A stretch of DNA of 61,938 nucleotides, filler included, from Sphacelaria rigidula (Eukaryota): assembly GCA_964200075.2 (NCBI GenBank). It is 9 parts of 9 records of this genome, joined end to end, with 100 filler letters (N's around TTAATTAATTAA, not from the genome) between each part and the next. Parts side by side here need not be neighbours in the genome. Positions count along the whole stretch, not along the records: positions 27,576 to 34,368 come from CAXNAA020018052.1; 8 more parts are not named here. The stretch is one strand, 5' to 3'. Position 1 is the stretch's first letter. The number at the start of each line of letters is the position of its first letter. The position numbers and the translations under genes were made by a program. Under the pieces are notes generated by a model. It saw only the letters and a program-made list of their open reading frames with translations, searched no databases and had not been told where the DNA came from. Positions 3,959 through 55,146 of this stretch are shown in pieces.

Positions 3959-3961
3959 TTA

Positions 3962-4642
3962 GGGCCTGTCTTAGCATTTTTGTTTCCGATCGAAAAAATG
4001 AGGCGGTGGAATCGATCTGAGCGAAAATTTCTCGTTTTGATTCAGTTGGGTCCGGATGGATTTTCAAGCTTTCGATCGCAAAAAGACAGGGAAATTCGTG
4101 AAACGGTACATGCATGGCCTGTACTATCTGCACTGCTTGCAAGTAGGGTGTCTTGAGTGCGTGTGTGCGTGTTTCGTGCAGGAGAATATAAAGGTGAAGC
4201 GGACAACGTGCAGTGCAGACAGCCCAGGACTATCAGTTATCTCTGCTTACAATGCGACGTGAAAATAATTTCAGCAACATGCAGCTTTGTACTGCTTGCA
4301 CTGTCCATGAGCGTGGACGCAAATCGGTTGCCCACCGTACCACGCAGTTCCGTCCCTGATGCCTCCCATCACAGAAGATGCGCAAGTTTTCGCCAACAAA
4401 AAATAAACAAAGCACACCCAACTACTGTAGTGTATCTATGTGCTCAACTCGTGCTCTATGCTGCAGGGTTACGGTGGTAGCTGGGAATGAGTTGGATGGA
4501 GTTTGCATCGTGCTGTGAACAGGTGGTATTAGGCGTGGTGGTCTGTAAGATGGGAGTCAATTGCTGCTTCGTGCCTTTCGATCGCATGTTTTCGATCGAA
4601 AACGATTGTTTCGACACGAAAACAATTTGAGAAGACACGGCC
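3962..4642. mobile_element. PIF/Harbinger-type MITE, family A copy 1
   Basis: Termini GGGCCTGTC...GACACGGCC with flanks TTA/TCA. Internal sequence aligns by eye with 28696-29511 and 51850-52455. Confidence 0.75.
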
Positions 4643-6794: not shown

Positions 6795-6894
6795 NNNNNN
6801 NNNNNNNNNNNNNNNNNNNNNNNNNNNNNNNNNNNNNNTTAATTAATTAANNNNNNNNNNNNNNNNNNNNNNNNNNNNNNNNNNNNNNNNNNNN
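6795..6894. other. Artificial contig spacer N44-TTAATTAATTAA-N44
   Basis: 100-bp linker with stop codons in all six frames. Confidence 0.98.
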
Positions 6895-13688: not shown

Positions 13689-13788
13689 NNNNNNNNNNNN
13701 NNNNNNNNNNNNNNNNNNNNNNNNNNNNNNNNTTAATTAATTAANNNNNNNNNNNNNNNNNNNNNNNNNNNNNNNNNNNNNNNNNNNN
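13689..13788. other. Artificial contig spacer
   Basis: N44-TTAATTAATTAA-N44. Confidence 0.98.
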
Positions 13789-20582: not shown

Positions 20583-20682
20583 NNNNNNNNNNNNNNNNNN
20601 NNNNNNNNNNNNNNNNNNNNNNNNNNTTAATTAATTAANNNNNNNNNNNNNNNNNNNNNNNNNNNNNNNNNNNNNNNNNNNN
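20583..20682. other. Artificial contig spacer
   Basis: N44-TTAATTAATTAA-N44. Confidence 0.98.
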
Positions 20683-22259: not shown

Positions 22260-24036
22260 GTGCAGCGAAGGAGTCGCTGCGTATATGAAAAAAACCTGTG
22301 AACATACGTTAAAAGGCGGTAGGCCGTGGCACGCGCTCCACGGTAGGCGGTGGCACGCGCTCACGGAGACATACTTGGACTTAGGCTTATCATATTTTGT
22401 TCCTGTTTTTATTGACAAAGGTTGATTTCCAACCAGAACAACCTGCGCAAATAAAGTATGGGACTATGACGTCCTTCGCCGCCGTTGTGCGAGCACGCCG
22501 CAAGTGCGGGGTGTAAGCGCATAAGGTGGCACCCAACCGCCCATATTGCCTTGGTGGCATATGCAGCAGCAGACGGGGTCGATTGACGTTGCATGGTAAG
22601 CGCGTGATCTCCATCTGTGATCTTTCTACCGCTCAGTTCAGTTTGTACCCCCACACGTTGCGGGAAGCGCTGCTTGGGGAAGAACTCGCCCTTCGATTTC
22701 AGGTGTTGCCGTTGTCACATTTTACCTTGCGGGAGCTTCGTGTGTCGAGTATATAAAGATGGGCCTTGACGAAATAGAGTTTACGGCTACGTGTACACGT
22801 CTACAGCTCGTCAATTAGCTGCGTAACTCGACCCCGTTTTCGAGTGTTTTTGTTCCTGGTTGTTCGAGGCACTCGAGCGAAGAAATAAAAAACTGCGCGT
22901 ACGATACTGAGCCTATACATGACCTGGTTCAAAATTGAGCAGCTTGTTCTAACTCAGACCTCACCGCTGTTTGGACCCGATGAACCATTCGATCGCCGGC
23001 GTTGATCGATCAATTGGGTATTCCGATCATTTTTCGAGTCAAAATAACCGTTTCCAAAGGATGACTGACCCACATCTAGCGGTCAAAAAAGCTATGGTAA
23101 AGCGCACCTGTTCCCTTTCGTCAGCTGCCCGTAAATCTAAATCCGTCGACCTCTGAGACATATCCGCGACTTTTACGTGTGACTTACCCAGAGCTTTCTT
23201 CCCTCGTACATGTCAAGACATCATTTTATACAATCGGAGGTACAGACCTCAGATGTGAGCACTTGGGTAGTCTCGGAGTGTGCTATGTTCTCCATTCAGG
23301 AATGAACCCCCTTGAACCGGTGCGGACCTAACGAACCCACGATGGGTGCAATGCTGCACCGAGTGTCTCAACAGCCACCTCCCCCCTCGTAGGGTGGGGA
23401 ATAGCTGCAAACGCAGCAGGAACGGGTTCATGATTTAGGCGTCCCTCTGGCGAGGTGTCGAGCATGGAACACCGTCCGTGGTGATGTTACAGCGCCATAC
23501 AACGAGACGCTACGTGATGACTTACGAAGTCTAATCAACTCAACCGCACTGTACATATATCGGAAAGGAACAAGCAGCGTCCTCCTTACTGTGAGTGCAG
23601 CCTACGTACAGATGCCTCACATGCTTGATTTGTCGCACACCACACGTTCGAAACACGGCAAAATGGCAACAATACCCTCGCTGATTTTGTTTTTTGTTTC
23701 CCGGAACCTGCGCTACGTGGCACATTTTTTTTTTTCTTCATGTTCTTCGTTTGCAGTATACTCTCTGACAAGCAAATCGAGACCCTCCACCCCGCTTTGT
23801 CGAAAACAGGCGAGTCATCGCGTGGAAGGGGCCGGCCCGAGTTTTCAGAGTTTGGGTCAAGTCTCCCAGGCGTACGGTGTTCATACAAGTCACGTCGAAG
23901 TTACACCAACATGAGCCTGCCCCCCCTCCCTTCCCACCATTGTGCTTGCTCTTCGTACTTCCTTGCTAGATTTTTTTTGTGAAGAGCCTCCCGTCCCTCC
24001 CCTTGCATCCCCTGAAATGCCTAAATTAACCCTTAG

Positions 24037-24317
24037 GTTGGCTAACGTCCCCGTCATCTCTCCGCTCTTACGACGTGAGGCGAGAGCGTATTTTCGACAC
24101 CAGGAAGAGCAGCTTCATGCCCGCGGACCCGCAGCAACTGATCGTCAATAACCCGAGGACCAAGTTCGACGACAGGGTGGTGTGCCTGGGGGAGGTACAC
24201 ACGCACCCCTTGCACCACCGCATGCAGTTCAACATGGTGAAAGCTACGCATCATATCACCAAGGCTTCCGCGGAGCCCCTCGCGATTGGCCTCGAGATGT
24301 TCTATCGCCAACAACAG
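24037..24317 (+). CDS. ChaN/DUF399 (haem-binding uptake, Tiki superfamily) protein exon
   Basis: VVCLGEVHTHPLHHRMQFNMVKA...LAIGLEMFYRQQQ carries the family motifs LGE.H, H..Q and GLEMF. Boundaries ccttag| and |gtgaca. Confidence 0.9.
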
Positions 24318-24987
24318 GTGACATACATGGCAATGTATCACACCCTGAAGAACAGAAGGAAGTACGTAGCTAACATAGTGTGCTGGGCAGCTAAATGGTT
24401 GCAAGTATGTAGGCGACAAGATGACGTTCAAAACAGGCAAGCTCCGGCTGTGCTACATACGCATACGGGAAGCAGCGCGTGAGACGGCGCAAAAAATCCC
24501 CCGGTGTGCGTCTCTGACCCGCGATCAACGCAGTACTGGCATGACGATGGCGGCAACAACAGGGGATCTTCGAACTCTTCGCTAATGCATTCCGAAGCCA
24601 AGGAATGCACAATTTTTCGTCTGTGGGTGGGGATGCAAGCCTTATTCACTCGCTCACTTTTACATTGCGCATATGTCGGCGACGAGCTGTATAAGAGGAA
24701 GTTCGGATTCTCAACGACATGCAGCATCAACGTTGCGGGCATATTACTTTGATTCCGGGATGAAGTATTTCCGCCCAAAATATTATATATTCTGAAATAC
24801 ACACACCCTACGGTGAACTGCACCTACACAGGATTGTACATATGCTAAACTAACACTTGATCGCCAAATCTCGCCTCTTGCGTGCATTTCTGGCCCCTCA
24901 ACTCGCCGTCGTGCACTCCCCCTCTGGATATGCTCGCTTCACGATACCTTCCCCGCTGCCCGACCGCACTACCTGTCCGTTGTATAG

Positions 24988-27475: not shown

Positions 27476-27575
27476 NNNNNNNNNNNNNNNNNNNNNNNNN
27501 NNNNNNNNNNNNNNNNNNNTTAATTAATTAANNNNNNNNNNNNNNNNNNNNNNNNNNNNNNNNNNNNNNNNNNNN
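27476..27575. other. Artificial contig spacer
   Basis: N44-TTAATTAATTAA-N44. Confidence 0.98.
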
Positions 27576-28692: not shown

Positions 28693-28695
28693 TCA

Positions 28696-29511
28696 GGGCG
28701 TGTCTCACTTTTTTTTTCGGTCGAAAAAATGGGGCGGTGGGCTCGATTTAAGCTAAATTCTCTCGTTTTGATGCAGTTTGGTCCAGATGGATATTCAAGC
28801 TTTTTATTGAAAAAATGCAGTGAAAATCTTGAAACGGTACATGGTCACTCGTGAACAGTACAGACACTCTGTATTGTCTGCACTGCTTGCAAGTAGTGTC
28901 TTGGTTGCGTATGTGCGTGCTTCGTTCAGGAGGATATCAAAGAGAAGCGGGCAACGTGCAGTGCAGACAGCGCAGAACTATCAGTTCTCTCTCCTTACCA
29001 TGCGACGTGAAGAGGACCTCAGCAACGTGCAGCTTTGTGCTGCCTGCACAGCCCATGAGCGTGCACGTAACTCGGTTGCCCACCGTACCACGCAGTTCCG
29101 TCGCTGATGCCTAGCATGAGAGAAGATGCGCAAGTTTTCGCCAACAAAAGTAAACAAAGCACACCCAACCACTGCAATGCACATATCCCTGGGCTCAACT
29201 CGTGCTCTATGCTGCAGCGTTGCGGTGGTAGCTGGGAATGAGTTGGATGGGGTTTGCATGGCCCTGTGAACAGGTGTTATCTGGCGTGGTGGTCAATAAG
29301 ATAGGAGTCAAGTGCCGTTTTGTGCCTTTCGACCGCATGTTCTCGATTGAAAACGATTGTTTTGTACTTCGATGCATTCCTCTTCGCGCGCCGCAAATTA
29401 TAATTTTGAGTTGAAGCCTTCTGGGAACATGAATGCGGTGGACCTATCAGATGGGCGAAAACAAATCGACCGCACTTTTTCGATCCAAAATAAAAGTGCG
29501 ACGACACGCCC
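28696..29511. mobile_element. PIF/Harbinger-type MITE, family A copy 2 (complete)
   Basis: Perfect 9-bp termini GGGCGTGTC...GACACGCCC, with TCA on both flanks (28693-28695, 29512-29514). Confidence 0.85.
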
Positions 29512-30059
29512 TCAACCTCATCTCTGCAATCGGCTGTTGGTAAGATGGACGTGGGGACACGCTGAGATAATGCCCCGCCCCTTCAGGCTGCGTTCGTATC
29601 ACGAGCACAACCGACATAAAGGCACAGGCTTCACATATCAGCTGCCTGACCAATGTGGTCTAGCGCCAGGGCACCGGTGGTTGCGTCGCCCGCTTCATAC
29701 ACCTGCTTCGACAGTCCCAGGGGCGCTGCAAATAACACGGGCGGATCGGGGTGCAACGCCTCTTGCAGCCCGATACCGACGGTGTCGGCGTGCGTGGTCA
29801 CCCTCCCTGTGGGTTAATGAGCGTGCCCTGAAGGTGTTCATGTTCGGTACAGTGTACAGTACTGAAACCAACAGCACGCTACGTAACCCTTTGGTGTATG
29901 CTGACACTCGAAGACAGTAATTTACGGTAGAGTAAGTATAGCACAACAGCTACTGTACTTCAAAAACAGTACAATAAATTACTGTACACCAAATACAGTA
30001 CAGTAAGTGCAGAAGCGTGCAGCTGTGCATGGCAGTGGTTATATTGGAATTTATCAAGA

Positions 30060-30823
30060 TGTTATTATGATCTCTGTATGACCCGACCCGCTCACTAATA
30101 ACCCCGGGCCAGTCAACCCGGACCGTCTTCCCGGGCCTGTCACCCTGGGACTGCCATCATCCAATCCCCAGTCTGGGAGTGTCATTCTCCCATGTCTAGA
30201 TGTTCCCTCGTGGGTGCATCCCCCCTTCGTCAGTTCTGTACCTCAACCCAAACCGGCTTGCAAAGTCCATCCTGTTCAAGTCCACGTCACGGCTCCGCAC
30301 ACTCCGTACCCTTTCACTGAGTGAGAAGCTACAACCTACACACACACACCGTCCGGGTAGGATAAGTCACAATCACTGTCCGACTATGTCTTATATTGGC
30401 GTCGACGGTAGGACACAAACCTACGCGTGAGATCACAATGGGTTTCGAATCCATTTCCTTGACCACTCGGACACGTCGACGCCAATATAAGACATAGTCG
30501 GACAGTGATTGTGACTTATCCTACCCGAACGGTGTGTGTGTGTGTAGGTTGTAGCTTCTCACTCAGTGAAAGGGTACGGAGTGTGCGGAGCCGTGACGTG
30601 GACTTGAACAGGATGGACTTTGCAAGCCAGTTTGGGTTGAGGTACAGAACTGACGAAGGGGGGATGCACCCACAAGGGAACATCTAGACACGGGAGAATG
30701 ACACTCCCAGACTGGGGATTGGATGATGGCAGTCCCAGGATGACAGGCCCGGGAAGACGGTCCGGGTTGACTGGCCCGGGGTTATTAGTGAGCGGGTCGG
30801 GTCATACAGAGATCACAATAACA
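30060..30823. mobile_element. Inverted pair of ~340-bp LTR-like arms around a tRNA copy
   Basis: Arms ~30060-30396 and ~30485-30823 are reverse complements. By eye they differ by about six transitions and one CA unit. Outer termini are TGTT...AACA. Confidence 0.85.
30397..30480 (-). tRNA. tRNA-Ser(CGA) copy with encoded 3' CCA (probable retro-copy, non-functional)
   Basis: Acceptor GTCGACG/CGTCGAC + G + CCA; D arm TCCGAGTGGTCAAGGA; anticodon arm ATGGA-TTCGAAA-CCCAT; long variable arm TGTGATCTCACGC; T arm GTAGG-TTTGTGT-CCTAC with a damaged B box. Confidence 0.85.
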
Positions 30824-32700
30824 TATCCCCCCAGCTACAGCGGTGTTAGCGCGCGACTCCGCTGAAGCTAAAGACTGGTATTTGAACCTCTAGGGACAAG
30901 ACCTGACGAGTTTACTAATATCCAATCCACTAATGTGGTATGAGACGTTCCACGAGACGATGTGGATATATGCGCACATTAGAGAACACTTGCAAAGACT
31001 TGTACGAGACAATACCGCGACTTCTTTCTTTTTCAGAATAGATCCTCAACGGAGGAGCAAATACATATATATTGTAGTCAATTTAACGACAAACCTGCAG
31101 GGTTGTTTTTACACATATATTTGCAGACATACGCGTATGTGGGGCAGAACGATTTCTTGCCAAGACTTAGTCACTTGTGACGGACGTGTGACATCTGGAA
31201 AAATGTGTGACGACTGAAGTATGGTGAAAAACGTGATGAAACCGTGATAGGTTTACTTTGGTCAAAGACTTGAATATTTTTACCATGACTTGAGCATGGT
31301 CATGTTTGAACTGACTTTGACAAGACGTGGCCGTGAAAAAAAATGTTGGCGAAACGAGACAAGACAAGAGATGACTGGTGTGGGTAAAACATTATGTATT
31401 CTGGGGTCTTAATCCAACAGCGTTCATCATCTTGTTTGCCCAGTGATCAATGCATCAGTGGAACGTACGATGGTGAATATCGAAGAAAATATTGGTGTTC
31501 TCTGATACAACCACCTGGGGTCCTAATCCAACAGGTGGTGATGACTGACGGCGCACGACGGTGGACGTGGACAGTCGGCCCGACAAAACAGACGATATAC
31601 AAGAAGACATATGTACACCCAAGCCCTAACTGAGGGTGCGGTATATCACCCTAGTTGACTCACACAAGACAAGGTAAACCATGTTCGACGTGGTTCGCAA
31701 CGGCGAAGACCAGATATGGTGTATGAAACACCAGCGGCAAGGATATATGCCGCTATAACTAGTATATACGAACGGCACAAAAATACGGGACGACAACTTG
31801 CCAAAAACATACAAGAAAAAACTGACGACTACTGGTAGCAATCACAGCGCTGCTAATTCTTTACTGTACGGGGAGCATCAAACGCAGATGGGTCCGCCGA
31901 CAAATTGACTGCCCGGTACGACTCTATCATTTCCCGGCACTGCGGAACTTCTCTATGATGCTTCCAAACCAAGAAACTGGTCACTTGTCAAACTTCAAAC
32001 TTCACACGGTCCAACTTCACCACCAGGGGTGCCTGCGGATCATCGTGTCGTGCATCTTGCGCCCCAAACCATTTGACGCAGTTTTTCGTCCCATGGAATC
32101 TATATATGATGGGCAACACCGTCTCCGTGCTGTAGACCCAGATGGACCTGCGTGGACGCCACACATCGACATACCAGTGTCTCCGCAGCATACGGGTGCT
32201 CAGCAACAGTATCCTGACCACCCAACGCGGTAATTTGTCACTTAAACCGTCACCTTTTCAGCCACGAACCAGCACCGACGCTCCTGCCTTCTTCAAACCT
32301 TCGCAGTGATGTCGCGTGTCGGACCGACACTCCTTGGTGGGGAGCTCCCCGGTCGTGTGAAGTACACCTACTTTGCGGCTGGTTCCACTTGTATGCGGGC
32401 TTACACCTACTCGTGATTTTTGTGTTTTCCGGCGTAACACTGATACTGTCGAGGGTGCTCCACGACCTTGTGGAATCTTTCCTTCGCGGGCTTTTGGGGG
32501 CGATTGCAGCAGATCCGCGCCGCTTTCTGCTCTCGGAATGGCTTCAAGTGTCACCCGTTATGCACCTACCAACTCTCCAACACTGCCAAGCACAACGGGG
32601 CACGCACTGCTCGGGAGGCCGACCTTGGGCAACACTGTCCAACGTTTTCAGGAAGTAGTGATACGACTCTGTACGACTGTCTGAAAATCTGGCTCACCTC
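30824..32700 (-). mobile_element. Decayed Ty3/Gypsy 3' internal region: integrase C-terminus/chromodomain-like segment, 3' UTR and polypurine tract
   Basis: On the minus strand GGGGGGATA directly precedes the TG of the right arm. Broken peptides GASVLVR...LSDKLPRW (GPY/F-like) and ...SFLVWKHHREVPQCREMIESYR (chromodomain-like) lie at ~31870-32290. Confidence 0.55.
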
Positions 32701-33964
32701 CCACAGATAAAAGTAACGCAAGGTGAGTTACAAGAGTTTCGCGCGAAGCGCGTTCATGGCCGAGCGTCATAAATCTGCACTCGGCAAAATATGAGGGCCC
32801 GTCTGAAATGAGGGGAAGAATTATCACATGGGACATCAAGGCAGACAGCTGCAACCATCAATAGCTTGGGATATGGCAGCTCCGTGTTAGCTCAGTTTGT
32901 TTGCCCCAACCTGCACGCGTCCGCCTTGCCTGTCTTCTCCGATCACAGCACCCGACTACAGCTGAAGTACCGAAGAAGACGCAACAGACAGCTGCACAGT
33001 CGTCACGTGATCGTTTCAACTTTGTGTACAGCCCTTTGATCCCACCCCACTTCTTTGTGGGCCGAAACACCGCATGCATCAGTACAAGTGCTGAGGCATT
33101 CTCCAGCGCACATCACACCATGTTTGTCGTGGAGTGTTTAAATGCACAACCGCACGACTACAGCATAGGAAAGATGGATGTGGCAAGCGCCTTGTTCGTT
33201 TTGACTGACGGCGAAACAGCCAACACACAACAGTGGTGTGCAGACAGCATTGCGTGCCGAAGAACATACTTTTCCTCGTTTTCTGTAAAGACGAAGGCGG
33301 TGACAGTCAGGTAACTGACGCAGTCCCAGCGGAGACCAAACCGTCTTCGCAAAGGTCCGAACACACCACAGCGCAGTGACAGCTACAGCGCATGAGAGAG
33401 AGCGTATGTTTGTGCTGCAGCACGATGAAACAGCACACGTCCCATGTGATAGTTCTTCCCCTCATTCCAGACGAGTGCTCAATTTTTGCCGAGTGCAGAT
33501 TTTTAAACGGTCGGCCATGATCGCGCTTCGTGCGAAAATCTTTCAATTCACCTTGAGTTGCCCTTCTCCTGCTCCGAACTTCCGTGCAAGCCGGATACAC
33601 GTCACGTTTGTTTTATGTTCTTCGTGCTGCTCGCTGTCTGTGTCAAGTTGTGCTCAACACTCGTTCTGTGTTCATATGCTACTGTGCTGACTTCATGAGA
33701 ACACCACTGTTACACCAACCGTTCTCGGCGTATGGTCTGGTGTGCGCCTTACGCGCGATGATGGAGCTGGTGTGGTATGTGCCGGGGGAAAGAAAACCCG
33801 AGCCTGTCGGCCAATAGCATGTACACCCAGAAGACCAAACCGAGGGAAGATCAGAACGTTCTTTTTGCTGCGGACTTTCGGGGGCAAATCTGCTTCCCAA
33901 ACCACCGTAATCCTAACCGTAATGCGGACTTGGGATTGTTGACCAATAGAAAAGACCGAGCCAA

Positions 33965-34202
33965 TCAATAAACTAGGAGGTAGATGGTGGCTAGAGACGG
34001 CGAGACAAGACGGGGATAAAATATCTAAAAGGTATTTGTGCAATGTATGGAAGGAACGTAATGAGCTATGGAAGAAACGTAATGGGCGTCGGAATGTTGG
34101 AGGTGTCTTTATCAGGAGTAGGAACGATGCGCCGTCTCAAAAGGGATGCGTGGTCAATGGTCAAACGACAAAGGCAAGCAACAAATGGGTATGCCCCCCC
34201 CC
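33965..34202 (+). mobile_element. LINE 3' end fragment
   Basis: Matches the reverse complement of ~35990-36200 and ends in GTATGCCCCCCC. Confidence 0.8.
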
Positions 34203-34368
34203 TCCGCCCCCCTCCTCTCCCTATGGACGCCACACTGATCTCGCCTCATTGCGGGTTGGGATTTTTTCCAAGGGCTATCTGGCACTTTTCCGCTTCCCTG
34301 GACGCCAGTTAACAGCGGATCCTGAAAAATGGAGCCCATCTCAAAAATGAGGTTGAAGTGGCATATCT

Positions 34369-34468
34369 NNNNNNNNNNNNNNNNNNNNNNNNNNNNNNNN
34401 NNNNNNNNNNNNTTAATTAATTAANNNNNNNNNNNNNNNNNNNNNNNNNNNNNNNNNNNNNNNNNNNN
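34369..34468. other. Artificial contig spacer
   Basis: N44-TTAATTAATTAA-N44. Confidence 0.98.
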
Positions 34469-34569
34469 CTGGTGTCGCCACTTCCCGAGACAGCCACAGC
34501 TTATACACTGCCTCATGGGTGTCTCACCATCACCCGGCGTATGAAGGGGGGATGTAATAACAACCAAAA

Positions 34570-35410
34570 CTTGTACTTCGCCGCACGTGAGGTGGCGAAA
34601 CTGTGGAGAACGGTAGAGGAGGATGATAAGCAGCGCAGATCCACTCTCCACCGCTCAAAAACAAGTAGGTGGGTTCGCAAGAATCGAAGAAACTGTCGAC
34701 GGCGGGAAGCACCGCGGCCGCGACTGCTGTATCCGGTGACAGTGGATCGAAATCCATAAAACCTCAAAAACCCGGCCTGGGGTACGCAGGCTGTTTCAAG
34801 TGTGGGGACAAAGGTAATTTCAGGAAGGACTGCAAAAAAGTCGAACAAGCCTGCGGCTACCGGGGGTGGGGATGGCGGACACGTGCAGCCGCCGCAGCAG
34901 CAATGACAGCAAATGGCGCAAGCTCAGCGGGGCGGGAGCAAAGATGTCCTACCCCCCACACGGACTGTTTTTACAGGGGATGAGAGTCAAAGGAACGTAA
35001 ACGGTGCTGATGTACTATGGTGCCGCTCGTGCCGTCTGTTCGGGCTCCTGCAGTACAGCCTCCGCCATTGACAGAAAAAGTTCAGCAGTGGACATCGGCG
35101 GCAGTGCCGGCGGAGCGGGGCTTACAGACTGCTTCAGACGTTGCAGAGCTAGAGGCAGATGCTTTGGACGTAGGAAAAAGGCTGCCGGGCTCATCTGTCT
35201 GTCCCAGGTTCCGCAGTACAGGCGGTATATCCGGTCAAGGCCGTGTTTGACGCTGGGGCTGGAGTGCCAATTATGTCTGAAATGGTGGTGTCTTGGCTGC
35301 AAAGCGCGTTTCCTGGGGTGTCAGTTGTCACACCAATGGCACGTGCACACTCGGTACTGCTGGCAGATGGGAACGTCAAAATCATGCAATCTAAAACGTG
35401 CATGGAGACA
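34570..35410 (+). mobile_element. Ty3/Gypsy gag-protease remnant
   Basis: Zinc-knuckle-like CFKCGDKGNFRKDC (His replaced by Asn) at ~34790-34835. Aspartic protease motif VFDAGAG...LLADG at ~35240-35380. Confidence 0.7.
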
Positions 35411-35429
35411 TGCTGCGACAGGGGGGGGG

Positions 35430-35968
35430 GGGGGGGGTACTCATTTTTTTTTTGGCTTGGTCGTTTGTTTATTGACCACCCATCCATTGTGAGAAAAAGC
35501 CCCGGTCCTNNNNNNNNNNAAATAAGTGCGCTATGCAAATTGAGGGGGTGGTGAGGGTGGGGGGGGGGGGGGTGGTGGGGGTGAGTCGTACTCATTTTTT
35601 GTGTGCCTTGGTCGTTTGATCATTGACCACGCATCCATTGCGAGACAAAGCACCGTTCCTACTCCTAATATAGAGCCACCTTCAACATTCCGCCGCCCAT
35701 TAAATTTCTTCCATACATTACGATACACAAAAACCTTTTACATATCTTATCCCCGTCCTGTCTCGCCGTCTCTGCCCACCAGCTATCTCCTACTGTATCC
35801 ATCCTTTCCTCCCTACTGTCTAACGCATCAAACGATTTCATGATATCTTCGTTCACGTCCCGCATTTCCCCCTCTGGTACGTCCCGGTCCTCCTTGTATA
35901 GTTCATATTCTGCCACTATATGACTTATCCTCTCTATTATTTTGCCACAGGGGCAGTTCTGTTCATCT
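35430..35968 (-). mobile_element. Additional tandem LINE 3' fragments
   Basis: 35585-35968 duplicates the 3' part of 35985-36400 (…HIVAEYELYKEDR…FDALDSRE). A short terminal piece lies at ~35435-35490, and a 10-N gap at 35510-35519. Confidence 0.8.
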
Positions 35969-35984
35969 ACTTCCTCCCACGACA

Positions 35985-38394
35985 GGGGGGGGGGGGGCGT
36001 ACTTATTTGTTGCTTGCCTTAGTCGTTTGACCATTGACCACGCATCTCTTTCGAGACGGAGCACCGTTCCTACTCCTGATAGAGAGCCACCTTCAACATT
36101 CCGCCGCTCATTACGTTTCTTCCATGTATCACACGAAAACCTTTTACGTATCTTTTCCCCGTCCTGCCTCGCCGTCTCCGGCCACCAGCTATCTCCTAGC
36201 ACAGCCATCGTTTTCTCCCTACTATCCAATGCATCAAACGATTCCATCCCACCTTCGTTCACGCCCCGCATTTCCCCCTCTAGCTTGTTCCGTTCCTCCT
36301 TGTATAGTTCACATTCTGCCACTATATGACTTCTGCTCTCCATTTCTTCACCACAAGGGCAGTTCTCTCCATCTACTTCCTCCTCCTTTCGACCACTGGT
36401 ATACATCCTTTGTCCCATAAGTCTGGTCGGTTATGTTTATACGAGCCCTTAACGTTGTCCGATCTGATTTTCGTTTTTTTCGATTCCTTCGCCGTTTTTT
36501 TAGGTATAACAACCTTTTGTTTTTTTGCAGCACGCTATTGAACCATGCGGCCGAACGGCCGCAAACAAATCAGTCGGCCAAAAAATGGCCGATTCTGCTT
36601 GTTGACCTTCTTCAGCGCCGCCACCTTGGTGAGCGTGAGGAGCGACGGACGTCCAGTTCTTGCGCTGTTCGAAAGGTCGACCTCCTGGGTAGCGTTCATC
36701 TGGGCTCTGGCGTTTTCCCACAATTTAGTCTGGTACTCGGGACCAACACCGCAGCGTTCGCAAATTGGCCCCAGTGAGCCCTCGGGCACCCTAGTCTTGC
36801 CCGGTGGAATAGCGAGCGCAACCTCCATCGCAATCGCATAGCGGCGACCCAATGGAAGCTCACCACGCGTTGTGCAGGGGGGGGGGGGGGGGGGGGCAGG
36901 GGGGGGCAGTTCCCACGGGTGTTGTTTTTGGGGGGGGGCGTACTCGGGGGCAAGTCCATCGTATTGTGATGTCTGTGGGCTAGATGTCGGGCGGTAATCA
37001 CGAATTCAAACAAAAATTCTCATGAAAATTCACGAAAATGGCCAAAATGGGGTATATTCTGACCTAATTTTAGTATTGAAAACGATGGGGTTTTTTTTTA
37101 TCCGCTGCGTCTGCGTTCTATCTTTCTATAGAACCCAACTATAGGGTAATCGTCAACACCGTTCCGCCCAAACAAAAAAACGCCCATAACCGACCAGACT
37201 TATGGGACAGAGGAAGTATCTCTTTTTTCTTTCTGGCAGGTTCAGGTCCCCCACCCGAAATCGCAGTTTCATATTTTTCGCAGCGTCGATTGGGTCAAAC
37301 GAATGTGCATTCATCCCTATCCCCTCTCTCAACCCCTCGTATATCTCCAGGAGGTGTTCTTCCTCGTCTACCTGGCGTGTGAGCGCTCCTTTTCCCCTTT
37401 TTTATATCATGTCTCTTACCTTTGTCTTGTACCCCACGCCTTCATCTATGGGCAGTATTTCGTCTTGGTTTCGTCCTATCTCCTTCCACAATTTATCGAT
37501 TTCTCTATCCCACCTTACTCCAGCCTTCCCTCTCGTACTTTTCTTTCATACAGCCCTATGAACTAAAGCTGTCAATCTCTTTCTCTGCAGCATGTTCTTT
37601 AAGCTACATCGTCATCTCAATTTCCTCACGTCTCTGTTTATTTTACGTGAGTACATTCCTAACCCTGCTCTCAAGACTATATTACTCGTCGTTTTCGAGC
37701 ATCCAAGCATTTTCTTACAGCTGTTGCTGCCATCTGTACTGTTTACAACTTTCCCACCAACTTCACGTTCCCCTCCCATACTTCTCCTGCATATTCTAGC
37801 TTTGGCACGATCACGTTCATCAGGATACATCTCTTAATCCTAGTCTAGGTGCGGGTCTCTGAGGATCACGTCCAACCTGCCTATCTGTGCCTTACCCTTT
37901 TCTACTACTTCGTTCATCTGCATATCCCAAGAACAGTGTTTCGAGATCTCTACGCCAAGGTATGTATACTAGTCTACGATCGGCAGTTCCTCTCCTCCCC
38001 ACTTCCATTCGAACTCTACTGGATTTTTCTTATCTTCGTTACAGACGAGAACCGCGCATTTATTTGTTGACATTCGCTGTCACTCGTCATTTTTTCCTAG
38101 TGTATTCTAGCGCCTTGTCTATCCGTTTCTGTAATCCTTCTGGTGTTTCTGAAATCCCCACAAAATCATCTGCGAACGTCAATCCCGATATCATATCTTC
38201 ACCCACCTTGAACCCTTGCGTTGCTACTTCTATTGCTATTATCAAGTCATTGATAAATACCTTGAACAAAGTGGGTGATAATATACATCCTTGTGCAACC
38301 CCTTGTAACGTATCTATCGAAATATTTCGATATTTCCCCGTCTAGGATCATGGCACTCTTGGCACATTCTGTCATCTTTTTCACCACTCTCAGA
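35985..38394 (-). mobile_element. 5'-truncated non-LTR retrotransposon (RT + C-terminal CCHC finger), interrupted by a mariner derivative
   Basis: GVAQGCILSPTLFKVFINDL...LTFADDFVG (RT core), LRFRVGDLNLPERKKRY, then TSGRKEEE...CPCG...ESRSHIVAEC. Stops and frameshifts are present. Confidence 0.9.
36404..37216 (-). mobile_element. Internally deleted Tc1/mariner (Stowaway-like TIR) element
   Basis: ~32-bp TIRs (CATCCTTTGTCCCATAAGTCTGGTCGGTTATG / CATAACCGACCAGACTTATGGGACAGAGGAAG) with TA on both flanks. ORF 36535-36852 resembles a mariner N-terminal HTH region (..GV...KLW...VDLS...GRPS). Confidence 0.85.
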
Positions 38395-41261: not shown

Positions 41262-41361
41262 NNNNNNNNNNNNNNNNNNNNNNNNNNNNNNNNNNNNNNN
41301 NNNNNTTAATTAATTAANNNNNNNNNNNNNNNNNNNNNNNNNNNNNNNNNNNNNNNNNNNN
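41262..41361. other. Artificial contig spacer
   Basis: N44-TTAATTAATTAA-N44. Confidence 0.98.
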
Positions 41362-43029: not shown

Positions 43030-45160
43030 ACGCCCACTGGACGGGTTATGTGAGTTTGTCGGTACAGATTGTAGAGATGTTGGAGCGTCTTCTCCCGGGT
43101 GTGCCACTGCGCATTTCGTTTTCGCTTGGGGCGCGGCAGGCCGTCACCGCGTCTTGTCAGCATGTTTACGTCACAGAGCGTACTGTTCCACTGCAAGTGA
43201 CTTCCACGATTTCCTGGGGGCCGGCGCAGTTGCCTCCGATCTCGTTTGCGATCATGCCGGGGTCGGATGGCGTTATTCTTCTGGGGTTGCCGATGGTTCA
43301 GGATATTGGAGTCAACGCTCGGCGGTTCTGGGATTCCATCAAGACGCGGATATCTCAGCCTGGCCCACGCTTGGAGACGACCGCCGTTTTGGGTAGTCGT
43401 CGCGTGAGCTTGTCGGTGGGATGCCTTCCAGGAGGCTGGAGAGCAGGTGACCCAAGAGCGGGATGCGGCGGTGGAACGCTCGGTAGAGCGCTGCCCGGAG
43501 CTGATAAGGATTCCGGTGGAAGAGGAGTCCGCTCGGAAGGTCGCGCTGGAGGACAGCGTGATGGATGGTGGGGTGACAGGCCTCAGCATCTCAAAATCGG
43601 AGCGCCTGCGCGGCATATTGCATTGCCGCATCAACGCGTTTCGTCGTGCGCTGCGGGGTGATCCCCCTGCGCGCGTGGAGCCCATGCGTGTTCAGTGACA
43701 ACCTGAGGCGTCCGCGGCGAAGACGAAGCCGCGGCGGTACGATCCAGTGAAGTCGAGTTGGTTGGCGTTGTGCATGGCGGCTCTTTTGGCGCTCGGGTTG
43801 GTAGTACGGAGTTTGAAGGCGGGGTAGTCCAGTCCAGGTATGGTGTTTTGCAAGAAGGCTGCATCGTAGACCGAGGGCAGGCTGCAGGCATGGGCGGCAG
43901 CGAAGGGTCTAGTGGCTCATGCCGTGACCTGCTCCATTCTCGTCCTGATTGTCAGGTGTCAATGTTTCCGGAGGCATTTGAGTGCCATTGGGGTAGTTTG
44001 GTCATGCAGGTGCCTACAGTTGAAATGCAGATGCCTGTGCGCGCTGTGGCTGTGTATGGTCCGTGTGAACCTGATGACTCGATGCCGTCCAAATCTGTTG
44101 TCCGCCAAGCGCAACGAAAAGACCTTGGGGCCGAAGATGCGGATGTGCAATCTTTCGAGTCGGATGTTGGTACTGCTATCTTGGACCATGAAGGTCTGTT
44201 TCGTGTGCATGTGCGTGGCAAAAACGTTTTGTGCAAACCGAGTTCTGACAAGCAGTTTCAGGTGCGCTGACGATTTGCGCGCACATGCGCGACGCCGGGC
44301 ATGGTGGTGTGGCTGCGACGCTCGTGCGCTTGCGAGAGTTTTGTGTCTTGCGGGGGATAGAAACTCATGTGCGCGAATTTTTCCGCCAGTGCCTTCACTG
44401 TGCTGACCCGAGGGCGGGCGATGTTGTTCCCCGCCCGCTCGGCGAAACGGTCCATGGGACCACGCCGAATGAAGTCGTTCATTTCGGCTTCTTGTACGTG
44501 GGCGAGAGGGACCCGCTAGCTTCCCAAGGTTTGTCGGAGGATGCTGGGTTTCGATACACTTTGGTAATCATGGATGATATCAACAATTTCGTGGCTCTGG
44601 AACCAGAAGCAGTGTGTACTGCTGAATCGACCGCTGTATCTTTGCTGAGTCGGCGCAAAACTTTGGGGTGCCGTGTGTGTTGGTTAGTGATACCGCCACG
44701 CATTTCAAGAATGCGATCTTGACCCGATTGCAAAAGGCTTTGCGCATTGATCACCTGTTTGGGGTATGGTATTCTCCGTGGTCTAACGGTACGTGCGAAC
44801 GCATGGTCAAGGAAATGGTTCGTGCTCTCCGCTCTATTCTTTTCGAGCAGCGTAGAGCGGTTTCCGAGTGGGTGGGCGTGTTGCCGGCGGTGCGATGGGC
44901 GCTTAATACAGCGTACCGTCGTCGTTACGATAGTACGCCGCACCACGTGACGGTTGGTCGTGCCCATCTGACGTCTTTCTCGGTGCTGGCATCTTCGTCG
45001 GCGGGGGAATGGAAGTGTGATGTTTTGGACGATGTTCAAATTAAGAGTGCATTGCAAGGAGTCTTGGTTTTGCAAGAACGTTTCCACGTTCAAGTGCAGG
45101 AACGTGTTGCCGCTGCACGTGCGCGTAGAAGTGAGGTGTCCTCGTCGGGGTCGTTTGTAA
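43030..45160 (+). mobile_element. Decayed Ty3/Gypsy pol: protease, start of RT (most of RT/RNase H deleted), integrase
   Basis: Protease end (FAIMPGSDGVILLG), RALRGDPPARVEPMRVQ, integrase HHCC (AH...GH...CLHC) and core (LVIMDD, VSDTATHFKN, SPWSNGTCER, WALNT). Frameshifted. Confidence 0.9.
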
Positions 45161-48154: not shown

Positions 48155-48254
48155 NNNNNNNNNNNNNNNNNNNNNNNNNNNNNNNNNNNNNNNNNNNNTT
48201 AATTAATTAANNNNNNNNNNNNNNNNNNNNNNNNNNNNNNNNNNNNNNNNNNNN
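48155..48254. other. Artificial contig spacer
   Basis: N44-TTAATTAATTAA-N44. Confidence 0.98.
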
Positions 48255-51024: not shown

Positions 51025-52982
51025 GGGGCAATCGCCAAAAACCGGTATACCGACGGTATTTTCGCCAACATCCGGTATAGCTCACGCCCCCCCTCAGAAA
51101 AGCTACTAATGTAGCCGCCTGATTGGCCGCATCCCGCCGCGTGCGCATTCTGGCGAAAACACATACGGTATACCTGTTTTGGGAAACTCAATTTGGCTTT
51201 CATCGTTTTTTGGCGACGGTCTCACCGGTTTTGGGCGATCGAAACGGTAATGCTCAAGTTCCCGGCCAGCCCCAAAACACACACGTCACCATATTCTATG
51301 TTACGTTTCGACGGCTGGCCGTTGGAGATCATAATATCCGGAGTTTTCGTTTCGTCTATCCGGTCACCCGCCGTTCTGGAGCTTTGCCCGTCAGTCCGAC
51401 AACAAGCACGCTTTGTCAATCCGTCAACGAACACGCCTTGTCGATCCGACAAAGCACGTGGTAACCCACGGGTTTGGAGAGAACCTTCAGTTGAAAGCAC
51501 ATGGCGCCCTGACCAAACAAACCGTCACCCTCGCAGGAACATGCAGAGTACAACATATCACCACCCACGCGAATCCAACATCAAATGCTCCGACCTAGGG
51601 GGACTCTCCCGTTATCTCAGCGTCGCTTTTTTTTCACAGCAGGGATTTGTCTGTCGCCTGTTGTTGCACGTACCGGCATACATACACCCACGAGATCATC
51701 ACCCAAGAAAGGGGGCCACGACTACACGGCAACTATTTTGAATCCAAGGGCTTGCTGCCGCTGCCTGCATGTGCACGGCGCTTCGGCACGTCTCCTTACC
51801 TTGTCTGTCTGCACACTGTTTGACCTTAGTTACAAACTGTGGGCAATTAGGGCGTGTCTTCGCACTTTTCCTATCGATCGAAAAGATGGGGAAGTGGAAT
51901 CAATCTCTGAGCGAAAATTTCTCGTTTTGATGAAGTTGGGTCCAGATGGATTGTCATGCTTTCCATCGAATAAAGGCAATGTAATTCGTGAGACGGTACA
52001 TGGTCACTCGTCTACAGCACAGTACAGACAGTCTGTACTGTCGGCACTGCTTGCAAGCAGAGTGCCTTGAGTGCGTGTTTGGTGCAGGAGGATATAGAGG
52101 AGAAGCGGGCAACGTGCAGTACAGACAGCCCTGAACTATCAGCTCTCTCTGCTTAAAATGTAACGTCAAAAGGACTTCAGCAACGTGCAGCTTTGTGCTG
52201 CCTGCACTGTACATGAGCGTGCACGCAACTCGGTTGCCCACCGTACCACGCAGTTCTGTCGCTGATGCCCACCATGAGAGAAGATGCGCAAGTTTCTGTC
52301 AACATATAATGAACAAAGCATACCAACTACTTCAGTGTATATATCCTTGTGCTCAACTCGTGCTCTGTGCTGCAGGGTTGCGGTAGTAGCTGAGAATGAG
52401 TTGGATGGAGTTTGCATGGTCCTGCAAAGAGGTATTGTTTGACGTGGTGGTTTCGGTCATAGGTTCGTGGGCTCGTGACAGCCAGCCAGGAGTACACAGG
52501 GCACCGTGTGCTTTCAACTGAAGGTTCTCTTCAAACCCGTGGGTTACCACGTGCTTTGTCGGATCGACAAGGCGTGTTCGTTGACGGATTGACAAAGCGT
52601 GCTTTTTGTCGGATTGACGGGCAAAGCTCCAGGACGGCGGGTGATGGTATAGACGAAACGAAACTCCGCATATCATGATCTCCAACGGCCAGCCGTCGAA
52701 ACGTAACATAGAATATGATGACGTGTGTGTTTTGGGGCTGGCCGGGGGAACTTGAGCATTACCGTCTAGATCGCCAAAAACCGGTGACCGTCGCCAAAAA
52801 CCGATGAAAGCCGAATTGAGTTTCCCAAAACAGGTGTACCGCTTGTGTTTACGCCAGAATGCGCACGCGGCGGGATGTGGCCAAACAGGCGGCTGCATTA
52901 GTAGCTTTTCTGAGGTTGTGTGTGAGCTATACCGGATGTTGGCGAAAATACCGTCGGTATACCGGTTTTTGGCGATTGCCCC
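51025..52982. mobile_element. Element with ~480-bp terminal inverted repeats (Mutator-like architecture, non-autonomous)
   Basis: 51025-~51510 and ~52497-52982 are reverse complements starting GGGGCAATCGCCAAAAACCGGTATAC. No TSD seen. Confidence 0.75.
51850..52455. mobile_element. Harbinger-type MITE, family A copy 3 (right end missing)
   Basis: TTA|GGGCGTGTC start. Homologous to 28696-29290, then replaced by the right arm of the long-TIR element. Confidence 0.75.
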
Positions 52983-53759: not shown

Positions 53760-53945
53760 GGGGGAGGGGGGGTTATTCGTTTGTCGTTTGCCCAATAATC
53801 ATTTAACACGCACTCCTTTCGAGACAGAGCACCGTTCCTACCACTAATAGACACCTCCAACAGTTGAGCGCTCATTGAGTTTCTTCCATACAGTTCACAA
53901 AAGCCCTACACATATCCCATCCTTCATGTTTCGCCGTCTGCGGTC
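53760..53945 (-). mobile_element. Diverged LINE 3' fragment within the kinase intron
   Basis: AGCACCGTTCCTAC...AATAGA...CCTCCAACA matches ~36060-36100. Confidence 0.65.
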
Positions 53946-55046: not shown

Positions 55047-55146
55047 NNNNNNNNNNNNNNNNNNNNNNNNNNNNNNNNNNNNNNNNNNNNTTAATTAATT
55101 AANNNNNNNNNNNNNNNNNNNNNNNNNNNNNNNNNNNNNNNNNNNN
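55047..55146. other. Artificial contig spacer
   Basis: N44-TTAATTAATTAA-N44. Confidence 0.98.

Follow-up and report, generated by a model that had tools for sequence, protein, structure and literature searches.

That a primer tRNA can be copied into retroviral DNA is already known from a few cloned molecules, and the need for a stop at m1A58 is known from work in cells and in the test tube. Colicelli and Goff (1986), as recounted in the accessible text of PMC12220202, cloned circular murine leukaemia virus DNA with tRNA sequence between the two LTRs; as at the locus reported here, reverse-transcribed tRNA adjoins the U5 end of an LTR, the attached primer having been copied by the plus strand. 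According to that text the circle has direct LTRs, is unintegrated and holds a spurious tRNA-Gly without its first four bases, whereas the Sphacelaria rigidula locus has inverted LTRs, carries a complete tRNA with a 4-nt mirrored extension and is chromosomal. The same portion of PMC12220202 describes a retro-copied mature tRNA-Gly with CCA that abuts the 3′ end of an HIV provirus, which resembles our locus in having a mature tRNA cDNA with CCA at a provirus end and no target-site duplication, and for which unwinding of the acceptor stem and its copying by reverse transcriptase are invoked. Unlike our locus, it is presented there without a second, inverted LTR, and its authors favour an independent self-primed tRNA cDNA that was inserted alongside.

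Plus-strand strong-stop DNA normally halts one nucleotide before m1A58, which together with m5Um54 provides the stop signal, and the available part of PMC8599865 predicts that without this stop the plus strand extends into the tRNA and loses its match to the other strand; in contrast to what we describe, that part reports a loss of infectivity and no fold-back or re-primed product. Methylations of the Watson-Crick face, including m1A58, m2,2G26 and m3C32, are named in the accessible part of PMC5066629 as the chief sites of mutation during reverse transcriptase read-through. Self-priming is described for HIV-1 minus-strand strong-stop DNA, whose 3′ end forms a hairpin and, as we propose here, folds on itself and is extended by reverse transcriptase into an inverted copy; in the portions of PMC6088434 and PMC1919501 at hand this concerns the minus strand and the TAR hairpin, occurs in vitro and is suppressed by nucleocapsid, while the S. 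rigidula locus would involve the plus strand and the anti-tRNA acceptor stem, with the product fixed in a genome. The non-autonomous LTR elements Helenus/TRIMp3 also associate tRNA-derived sequence with LTRs, but the accessible text of PMC10886601 places their tRNA-like part inside direct LTRs, with PBS and PPT between these and a target-site duplication of 4-5 bp, whereas our locus has the tRNA between inverted arms, the PPT-like tract outside them and no target-site duplication. In the literature searched, with most subscription journals outside its reach, we found no description of an inverted LTR-tRNA-LTR structure.

We analysed a 61.9-kb stretch of S. rigidula DNA, referred to as the window. 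A repeat search of the window recovered an inverted repeat of 764 bp at positions 30060-30823 (arm segments: 291 nt, 98%; 70 nt, 99%), as the first-pass annotation had claimed, and global alignment resolved its two arms, 30060-30396 on the left (337 nt) and 30485-30823 on the right (339 nt). The arms differ by six substitutions, all of them transitions, and by one AC-dinucleotide indel in a microsatellite, giving a divergence of 1.8% (6/337). They are the only two copies of the arm in the window, both inverted, and no direct LTR partner is present there. The order at the centre is exact to the base, namely arm, T, TGGC, tRNA, GCCA, A, arm, where GCCA (30481-30484, plus strand) mirrors TGGC (30397-30400), and both arms keep an unprocessed 1-nt spacer (T/A). 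The acceptor stem of the tRNA forms an inverted repeat of 7-11 nt with a spacer of 62-66 nt.

The loop between the arms is a DNA copy of a mature tRNA. ARAGORN identified one tRNA in the whole window, a tRNA-Ser with anticodon cga on the minus strand (30397-30480), and Rfam RF00005 agreed with a score of 48.8 bits (gathering score 29), confirming the earlier proposal of one complete tRNA-Ser(CGA) with CCA. The copy is 84 nt long, with encoded CCA, discriminator G and a full cloverleaf that is intact except for an A31-C39 mismatch, and it has no leader, trailer or intron, as expected of a retro-copied mature tRNA; termini of the arm family abut it at both ends. It runs past position 58 (30415) to position 1 (30480). 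The 18 nt that follow the left arm (30397-30414, plus strand) are complementary to tRNA positions 76 to 59, are equivalent to a PBS and occur once in the window; ordinary plus-strand strong-stop DNA would bear just this stretch. The PBS-like 17-mer noted here earlier is no independent PBS, since it is the 3′ end of the tRNA read on the other strand. In public collections the 18-nt sequence matched 13 bacterial contigs and one viral contig, which is about the chance level for an 18-mer, and a 20-mer from the variable arm of the tRNA, used to scan the collections for a host-like tRNA-Ser gene, gave 0 matches.

Evidence on the arm as a family came from contigs of three public studies, the runs being X1, X2 and X4 (DNA) and X6 (RNA by guess), in which 913, 817, 942 and 132 contigs, respectively, matched a 1051-nt stretch. 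Diverse loose contig ends were found at 30823, the mirror of the start of the left arm (18, 12 and 20 contigs of X1, X2 and X4), at 30824 (11 contigs of X2 and 9 of X4) and at 30486, the mirror of its inner end (10 contigs of X4), the last representing arm copies without the tRNA. The arm therefore behaves as a bounded, multi-copy unit with unrelated flanks, of which a subset continues into common internal sequence, in line with the LTR nature claimed for it. The family unit starts with TG, and its inner end is TA and not the CA of a TG...CA LTR; the TG...CA pair noted earlier at the ends of the palindrome has no meaning of its own, since it is automatic in any palindrome that starts with TG. 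A 20-mer from the arm gave 0 matches in viral, metagenome and genome collections. We infer that the arm family is the LTR of an element primed by tRNA-Ser(CGA).

Both arms are copies of one molecule, as indicated by the 11 of the 16 listed departures from the family majority that they have in common; the right arm carries in addition five derived substitutions absent from the left arm and one extra AC unit. The left arm is a complete family unit in sense orientation on the plus strand, with its TG start at 30060 and its inner end in TA plus the 1-nt T spacer at 30396, and it ends exactly at the family terminus, where it is joined to unrelated flank; so exact an end speaks for cDNA and against duplication within the chromosome. 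The right arm is the same unit in minus-strand sense and behaves like a 3′ LTR toward the sequence on its right. These features bear on a reading in which a tRNA gene or pseudogene became flanked by two independent family insertions through tRNA-targeted integration. tRNA genes do serve as targets of some retroelements, according to the available parts of PMC5633606 and PMC3159450, but here the tRNA sequence includes an encoded CCA, the two junctions mirror each other base for base (T/A spacer, TGGC/GCCA), the 1-nt spacer is unprocessed in both arms, and the arms have most of their private variants in common and differ by so little, with the result that we regard two independent insertions as close to refuted.

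On the minus strand, G6 followed by A, T and A lies directly before the TG of the right arm (PPT-like tract, 30824-30834), and no purine tract precedes the left arm, bearing out the earlier observation of a tract on the right arm only. The tract has the position of a PPT upstream of a 3′ copy and is short for one; 0.8% of the positions in the window have a run of at least six G or C within 5 nt. At 30826, 15, 16, 16 and 3 contigs of X1, X2, X4 and X6 have T>C, away from contig ends, and this variant (G on the minus strand) would give G7 followed by TA. The right arm thus sits in the usual upstream context of its family, a G-run, 2 nt and TG. A G-run, 2 nt and TG, together with an LTR end, 1 nt and a PBS, is the retroviral geometry. 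The junction 30823/30824 was bridged, with at least 31 nt on each side, by 4 of the 8 listed pieces of X1, 3 of 8 of X2 and 3 of 8 of X4, and the listed bridging pieces, three or four per DNA run, extend into 30824-31100. Beyond the tract, on the minus strand, lies a putative internal 3′ region (30835-31400, the end coordinate being provisional), which is repeated, keeps its colinearity with the arm elsewhere in the genome and has no second copy within the window.

The sequence to the right of the palindrome had been called Gypsy-like, which our searches did not bear out: in the three minus-strand frames of 30836-36837, 0 Pfam families were found, with no gag, protease, reverse transcriptase, RNase H or integrase that would place the element in Ty3/Gypsy (Metaviridae). 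Across the window, Pfam analysis of 93 ORFs of at least 110 aa returned nothing beyond a Tiki/ChaN-type exon, an Integrase_H2C2 fragment and matches below threshold. The Integrase_H2C2 fragment (44249-44719) is the sole retroelement domain of the window and lies on the strand opposite to the element of the right arm. Over the 31 kb beyond the palindrome on its right side, no PBS or 5′ LTR was found. Around 30060-30823 there is no target-site duplication, the flanks reading CAAGA on the left and TATCC on the right; the locus therefore departs from a Foldback/MITE-type DNA transposon, in which terminal inverted repeats come with such a duplication, and its right flank belongs to the repeat family of the arm. 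The left flank showed no likeness to the arm (best local score 22, against a 95th percentile of 24 in shuffles), and given this score a 9-nt match of the left flank to the junction of arm end and TGG is attributed to chance.

We propose that the locus is probably the fossil of one aberrant reverse-transcription event in an LTR retroelement primed by tRNA-Ser(CGA). From the anatomy we infer read-through of the primer, re-priming and a mode of chromosomal joining, as follows. Plus-strand strong-stop DNA, consisting of the LTR, the 1-nt spacer and the primer copy, would have failed to halt before m1A58, and all 84 nt of the mature tRNA, CCA included, would have been copied. Removal of the tRNA by RNase H would then expose a new 3′ end, CGTCGAC. 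The 3′ acceptor strand of the tRNA itself reads the same, which would allow this new end to anneal to the opening stretch of any PBS, displaced inward by four bases relative to normal priming. In the fold of the anti-tRNA DNA, the 3′ CGTCGAC is paired with 30401-30407 and TGGC is the next template. Extension would copy TGGC, or the same bases of a PBS, into GCCA, followed by the spacer and U5-R-U3, yielding the inverted LTR; GCCA at 30481-30484 would thus mark the extension point.

This extension might have taken place in cis, on the strand itself, as a fold-back, or in trans, on the PBS of a second packaged RNA or of another plus-sense strand. Read-through followed by a self-primed fold-back had been suggested earlier, and the mature tRNA copy with CCA, T58 and the fold that places TGGC as the next template agree with much of that suggestion. 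The strictly in-cis part is less satisfactory, in that it needs an extra, unexplained switch at the U3/PPT border, whereas priming in trans on a PBS explains the same sequence by ordinary minus-strand synthesis, which would continue through the PPT into the internal region, as seen to the right of the right arm. Second-strand synthesis would give a duplex whose free end is the inverted U3 terminus with CA-3′, and this end would have been joined to the chromosome at 30059/30060. Such a product would have no usable 3′ PBS for a second jump, which agrees with the finding of neither a 5′ LTR nor a target-site duplication.

The substitutions within the tRNA copy also bear on read-through. By alignment to the Rfam consensus, the copy has T56 and T58 in place of C and A, both at invariant positions, so that its B-box region is altered, and its A26 contrasts with a G in tRNA-like contigs (9 in X1, 10 in X2 and 13 in X4). 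At 30455 (T>C) and 30461 (G>A), 7-13 contigs per DNA run depart from the window, whose A26 and C20a stand against a majority G and T, and the window's letters at these two positions keep depths of about 106/110 in X1, 96/66 in X2 and 62/83 in X4. Position 58 is the m1A58 stop site, and T58 therefore counts in favour of read-through of the primer by reverse transcriptase. The arm divergence of 6/337 predicts fewer than one later substitution in 84 nt, and at least 4-5 departures are present when the Rfam consensus and the tRNA-like contigs serve as references, suggesting an excess that arose during copying. The C56>T change lies at a CpG and may be ordinary decay, and gene conversion between the arms could hide their true age, which weakens the argument from excess substitutions.

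A palindrome could also have formed at the DNA level, if a break, or a template switch during replication, struck an integrated 3′ LTR that already carried a read-through tRNA copy, the DNA folded back at the acceptor stem and repair synthesis then copied the LTR in reverse. Short inverted repeats beside a break are a known route to palindromes, the acceptor stem offers one of suitable kind, and the lack of a target-site duplication would be accommodated. However, fold-back repair copies anything beyond the repeat, yet the new arm ends to the base at the U3 terminus (30060), and because the family's own copies end at this terminus as well, such a coincidence is unlikely for a chromosomal process; moreover, read-through by reverse transcriptase would still be required to place the tRNA. 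We therefore consider an origin by DNA repair improbable.

The palindrome is real in the assembly, though the public contigs do not confirm it. None of the listed pieces spans the whole 1051-nt stretch, and the best public run contains a fraction of 0.46 of the sampled words. At 30386, where the window has A, all contigs of X1 (21), X2 (17) and X6 (3) have G, and the A is matched solely by a depth of 12.9 in X4. This private base, the missing spanning piece and the incomplete best run would fit an origin of the structure in a chimeric long read that folded back on itself, or in two LTR copies wrongly joined during assembly. Contigs are poor at palindromes and repeats, though, and their silence proves little. 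The arms differ at six sites and by one microsatellite unit, five of the differences being derived in one arm only, whereas fold-back read artefacts yield identical arms, and thus the argument made earlier from the arm mismatches holds; in addition, the centre of symmetry is no arbitrary point and consists of a complete tRNA with exact family termini on either side. An assembly artefact is accordingly very unlikely in our judgement.

Two contigs, each known from the two sides of its joint, appear to join arm and tRNA/PBS sequence in other ways (each joint in one contig; X1, X2, X4). The joint 30415>30478 connects the arm and 19 nt of tRNA complement to GACGCCA and the inverted arm, and the joint 30479>30543 connects the 5′ part of the tRNA to the arm; the depths of both contigs are similar to those of other listed contigs. 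Neither arrangement is predicted by the single aberrant event that we favour, and both are counted against it. For the joint 30415>30478, a reading with an inverted loop was ruled out, as a flipped loop would break the alignment at 30407/30474, and a deletion between the direct repeats GGACA (30411-30415 and 30469-30473) was also ruled out, as it gives a skip of 58 nt and not of 62. The two joints, and the part of the depth that retains the window's letters at 30455 and 30461, would fit a recurrent or mobile "tRNA-loop fold-back" element, in which the unit LTR-tRNA-inverted LTR recurs or is re-mobilized through its two identical CA-3′ U3 ends. On the other side, joints with less than 95% likeness often arise from repeats; the residual depth at 30455 and 30461 may stem from ordinary tRNA-Ser genes; no target-site duplication surrounds 30060-30823 (CAAGA against TATCC); and the right arm runs on into upstream sequence typical of the family, so that the 764 bp are not free-standing here. 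Recurrence or mobility of the unit is thus doubtful.

The locus can be set beside a further model. Okada, Ohshima and colleagues are said to have derived tRNA-derived SINEs from strong-stop DNA, and on the minus strand our locus shows tRNA with CCA fused to the complement of U5-R-U3, the primer-plus-cDNA intermediate postulated there. Unlike a tRNA-derived SINE, it has a damaged B box (T56, T58) and no tail or terminator, and tRNA plus arm were not seen as a repeated unit.

The fate in nature of a plus strand that fails to stop is not known to have been described. This locus, which is most likely inert today, has the appearance of one such product that became fixed in a chromosome. The steps are recorded in it to the base: the tRNA is complete and ends in CCA, position 58 is altered, four mirrored bases follow, and then comes the LTR in inverted orientation. 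The locus also suggests a general hazard, in that a fully copied tRNA end has the sequence of the primer's acceptor strand and can re-prime at any PBS. The placement of tRNA and CCA directly against U5-R-U3 cDNA corresponds to the intermediate that was at one time put forward for the origin of tRNA-derived SINEs. Any transcript across the palindrome would fold into a perfect LTR hairpin some 340 bp long, of the kind able to trigger RNA silencing.

If the locus is a one-off, it is an instructive curiosity. There is a small chance that it belongs to, or founded, a recurrent class of retroelement ends of a "tRNA-loop fold-back" type, in which a copied primer tRNA mimics the primer and re-primes at the PBS. 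Were this so, the product would have two identical integrase-compatible U3 ends and could recur or move, its LTR hairpin RNA could feed the silencing of its own family, and it would provide a natural example of the postulated route from primer tRNA and strong-stop cDNA to SINE-like elements; the m1A58 stop would gain a second reason, namely the prevention of primer mimicry by the copied tRNA. A recurring structure would be a new retroelement-derived one, for which any genome could be searched as long inverted repeats with a CCA-bearing tRNA loop.

Both an inverted-repeat search of the window and a global alignment bore out the 764-bp palindrome proposed in the first-pass annotation, at positions 30060–30823, and, as read in the assembly alone, it is a real and unusual structure. 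The palindrome is near-perfect; the search scored its inverted arms as stretches of 291 nt (98%) and 70 nt (99%), interrupted only by a microsatellite, while in the global alignment the left arm (30060–30396, 337 nt) and the right arm (30485–30823, 339 nt) differed by six substitutions, all of them transitions, and by one AC unit. No third copy of the arm was found in the window by sensitive BLAST. The TG...CA ends previously remarked on carry no weight, as they are automatic in any palindrome with a TG start. To the left of the palindrome lie a 29-bp unit repeated 1.9 times (29951–30006, 85% matches, ~55 bp away), rich in a short self-complementary motif, and, ending ~700 bp away, one copy of a ~650-bp repeat that is unrelated to the arm and present three times at ~82% identity (28695–29362, 3961–4611 and 51849–52451).

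The loop had been described as a complete tRNA-Ser(CGA) with CCA, and this was confirmed by ARAGORN, which found a single tRNA in the window, a minus-strand tRNA-Ser at 30397–30480 with cga as its anticodon, and by the Rfam tRNA model (48.8 bits vs a gathering score of 29). The copy is 84 nt long, with the discriminator G and CCA counted in, and the PBS-like 17-nt complement claimed beside it is not a separate feature, being simply the tRNA 3′ end as seen on the opposite strand. GCCA at 30481–30484 mirrors TGGC at 30397–30400, and a single base separates each arm from the centre (T at 30396 and A at 30485), which gives the order arm, T, TGGC, tRNA body, GCCA, A, inverted arm. The right arm has a G6 run and then A, T and A immediately before it in minus-strand sense, while no comparable purine run was present before 30060 at the left arm, as had been claimed; a G-run this close occurs at 0.8% of window positions.

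For comparison outside the window, Logan contigs from four public sequencing runs of three studies were aligned to 30350–31400 at 85% likeness, yielding 913, 817, 942 and 132 contigs (runs X1, X2, X4 and X6, respectively). Summed depth over the arm was hundreds of times that of single listed contigs, a value that is not a copy number and indicates only a multi-copy family; a 20-mer scan of public viral, metagenome and genome collections found no arm relatives. At 16 listed right-arm sites the great majority of family contigs differed from the window base. The window's minority base was common to both arms at 11 of the 16, and at the other five the right arm alone was derived (in LTR sense, four C>T and one A>G). 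The remaining difference between the arms probably arose by a CpG change on the left side, and this asymmetry of five to one is without statistical significance. Judged by these variants, one molecule was the source of both arms. Separate insertion of the two arms next to a tRNA gene, a candidate we regard as extremely improbable, was rejected on the strength of the shared minority variants, junctions that mirror each other exactly, and a CCA that is encoded.

The same contigs bear on whether the palindrome is an assembly artefact. At 30386 every X1, X2 and X6 contig carried the family G where the window has A, the latter being matched only by a depth of 12.9 in X4, and the best run contained 0.46 of the sampled words. 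However, an artefact would yield neither arm-specific substitutions, a point already made in the first-pass annotation and upheld here, nor a centre exact to the tRNA, and we consider this explanation very unlikely.

Many family copies end exactly at the ends of the window's arm, so that the arm is a complete, bounded unit: at 30823, 18, 12 and 20 contigs (X1, X2 and X4) continued into mutually unlike sequence (agreement 0.42–0.46), at 30824 another 11 (X2) and 9 (X4) did likewise, and at the inner end, 30486, 10 X4 contigs diverged (agreement 0.47). Some copies extend beyond the outer end into sequence matching the window's right flank; among the listed pieces, 4 of 8 (X1), 3 of 8 (X2) and 3 of 8 (X4) crossed 30823/30824 at ~90% identity and reached 31 nt or more to either side. 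A variant at 30826, in 15, 16, 16 and 3 contigs (X1, X2, X4 and X6), would lengthen the run to G7, with TA after it. Solo LTRs and 3′ LTRs show just this pattern, a mostly solitary bounded unit that is sometimes preceded by shared sequence, a purine run and two bases, and the single spacer base ahead of the tRNA complement fits the picture. The LTR status of the arm is nevertheless indirect; the window contains no direct LTR pair, and the inner terminus of the family is TA, not CA.

Gypsy-like internal sequence had also been proposed, but the three minus-strand frames of 30836–36837 contained no Pfam families. The only retroelement domain that Pfam found in the window was an Integrase_H2C2 zinc-binding fragment (44249–44719, plus strand, E 3.6e-07), 13 kb off and on the opposite strand; as it stands alone among retroelement domains in 41.4–46.5 kb, it is what is left of a decayed LTR element with no relation to the arm family. 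Fragments repeated at 35574–36383 (tandem), 33968–34215 (inverted) and, more weakly, 53780–53939 encode on the minus strand a Cys/His knuckle-like motif and, after it, a conserved stretch; they had no Pfam match and may represent the C-terminus of an ORF from a non-LTR retrotransposon. An ORF at 24030–24479 (plus strand) encodes a Tiki/ChaN-type haem-binding domain (Cofac_haem_bdg, E 2.9e-11) and is probably a host gene exon. Paired 44-base N runs, 12 bases apart, recur every ~6893 bases (6795–6894, 13689–13788, 20583–20682, 27476–27575, 34369–34468, 41262–41361, 48155–48254 and 55047–55146), together with four 10-base N runs, and their regular spacing suggests masking or scaffolding, not biology.

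The tRNA copy has an encoded CCA, and arm-family termini abut both of its ends. All of what we take to be the conserved tRNA positions are kept in the Rfam alignment except two in the T loop, T occupying positions 56 and 58 where the Rfam consensus has C56 and A58; an A31–C39 mismatch is also present. At position 26 the copy has A, while 9, 10 and 13 tRNA-like contigs (X1, X2 and X4) have G, and at 20a it has C, while 8, 7 and 8 have T. The Rfam consensus and the tRNA-like contigs served as the reference for these changes in place of the host tRNA-Ser(CGA) gene. Position 58 is m1A58, and plus-strand strong-stop synthesis normally ends one nucleotide short of it (PMC8599865); mutations from reverse transcriptase read-through fall chiefly at Watson–Crick-face methylations, among them m1A58, m2,2G26 and, in type II tRNAs such as tRNA-Ser, m3C32 (PMC5066629). 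Since the arm divergence of 1.8% predicts less than one later substitution per 84 nt, most changes probably arose during the copying itself, an argument weakened by C56>T lying at a CpG and by arm gene conversion, which could mask age. The loop thus reads as a copy of a mature tRNA, probably in its modified state. SINE-like activity is unlikely because the B-box region is damaged.

In plus-strand order the locus comprises LTR, spacer, complement of tRNA 76 to 1, GCCA, spacer, inverted LTR, purine-tract complement and upstream sequence. The first half would be plus-strand strong-stop DNA that failed to halt and the second ordinary minus-strand DNA with the primer's last four bases in front, the acceptor stem serving as the link between them. 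Because the complement of tRNA 7 to 1 (CGTCGAC) is necessarily identical to tRNA 66–72, copying of the tRNA in full would leave a 3′ terminus that mimics the primer minus GCCA. In the predicted fold of the anti-tRNA DNA, whose energy is ordinary, as expected for 96 nt (z = −1.1), the 3′ end pairs with 30401–30407 and TGGC comes next as template. The in-cis fold-back first proposed would yield GCCA and the inverted LTR, but it would exhaust its template where U3 begins, and only with another switch could synthesis enter the purine tract and the sequence past it. Re-priming on a PBS in trans, on a second packaged RNA or other plus-sense strand, would create an identical junction, and extension would proceed as normal minus-strand synthesis, with first-strand transfer into U3, to the purine tract and internal region. 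As no added switch would be needed, the in-trans form is favoured, though the sequence fits both.

Such a product would be without a 3′ PBS for the second transfer, which fits the lack of a 5′ LTR or PBS in the 31 kb of window to the right, the lack of a target-site duplication at the palindrome flanks, and a left end lying exactly at a cDNA-type terminus with CA-3′. Joining to the chromosome would have occurred by end capture or one-ended integration. On balance, we lean towards a reading in which the primer was read through, re-priming followed and the by-product became fixed. Fold-back at the DNA level, starting from a break, could have produced a palindrome, but it is not expected to stop at the arm-family terminus, and we regard it as unlikely. 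That arm–tRNA products recur, and that this is not a one-off, seems similarly doubtful: two other contigs in X1, X2 and X4, with depths like those of other listed contigs, join arm with tRNA/PBS differently, but these could reflect allelic or paralogous copies, or joins induced by repeats. From the joint coordinates, one (30415/30478) would read arm, the tRNA complement for 19 nt as far as position 58, GACGCCA and inverted arm, and the other (30479/30543) the tRNA 5′ part followed by arm from 30543.

In agreement with the first-pass annotation, no inverted LTR–tRNA–LTR structure was found in the full-text literature searched, most subscription journals lying outside it. Among the nearest cases is the strong-stop-DNA model for the origin of SINEs. 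Another is hairpin self-priming, which differs in concerning minus-strand strong-stop DNA (PMC6088434, PMC1919501). Two more are described in PMC12220202: a tRNA retained in cloned circular MLV DNA (Colicelli and Goff 1986), where the LTRs around it are direct, whereas here they are inverted, and an HIV provirus with a retro-copied, CCA-bearing tRNA-Gly next to it. Helenus TRIMs are a different thing, as they carry tRNA-like sequence inside direct LTRs (PMC10886601). Primer-tRNA retention in retroelement DNA is already known, and the structure in the window is a novel variant of it. A transcript across the locus is predicted to form a perfect hairpin of ~340 bp (−774 kcal/mol, z = −52) and, speculatively, such LTR hairpin RNA could feed silencing of the arm family.
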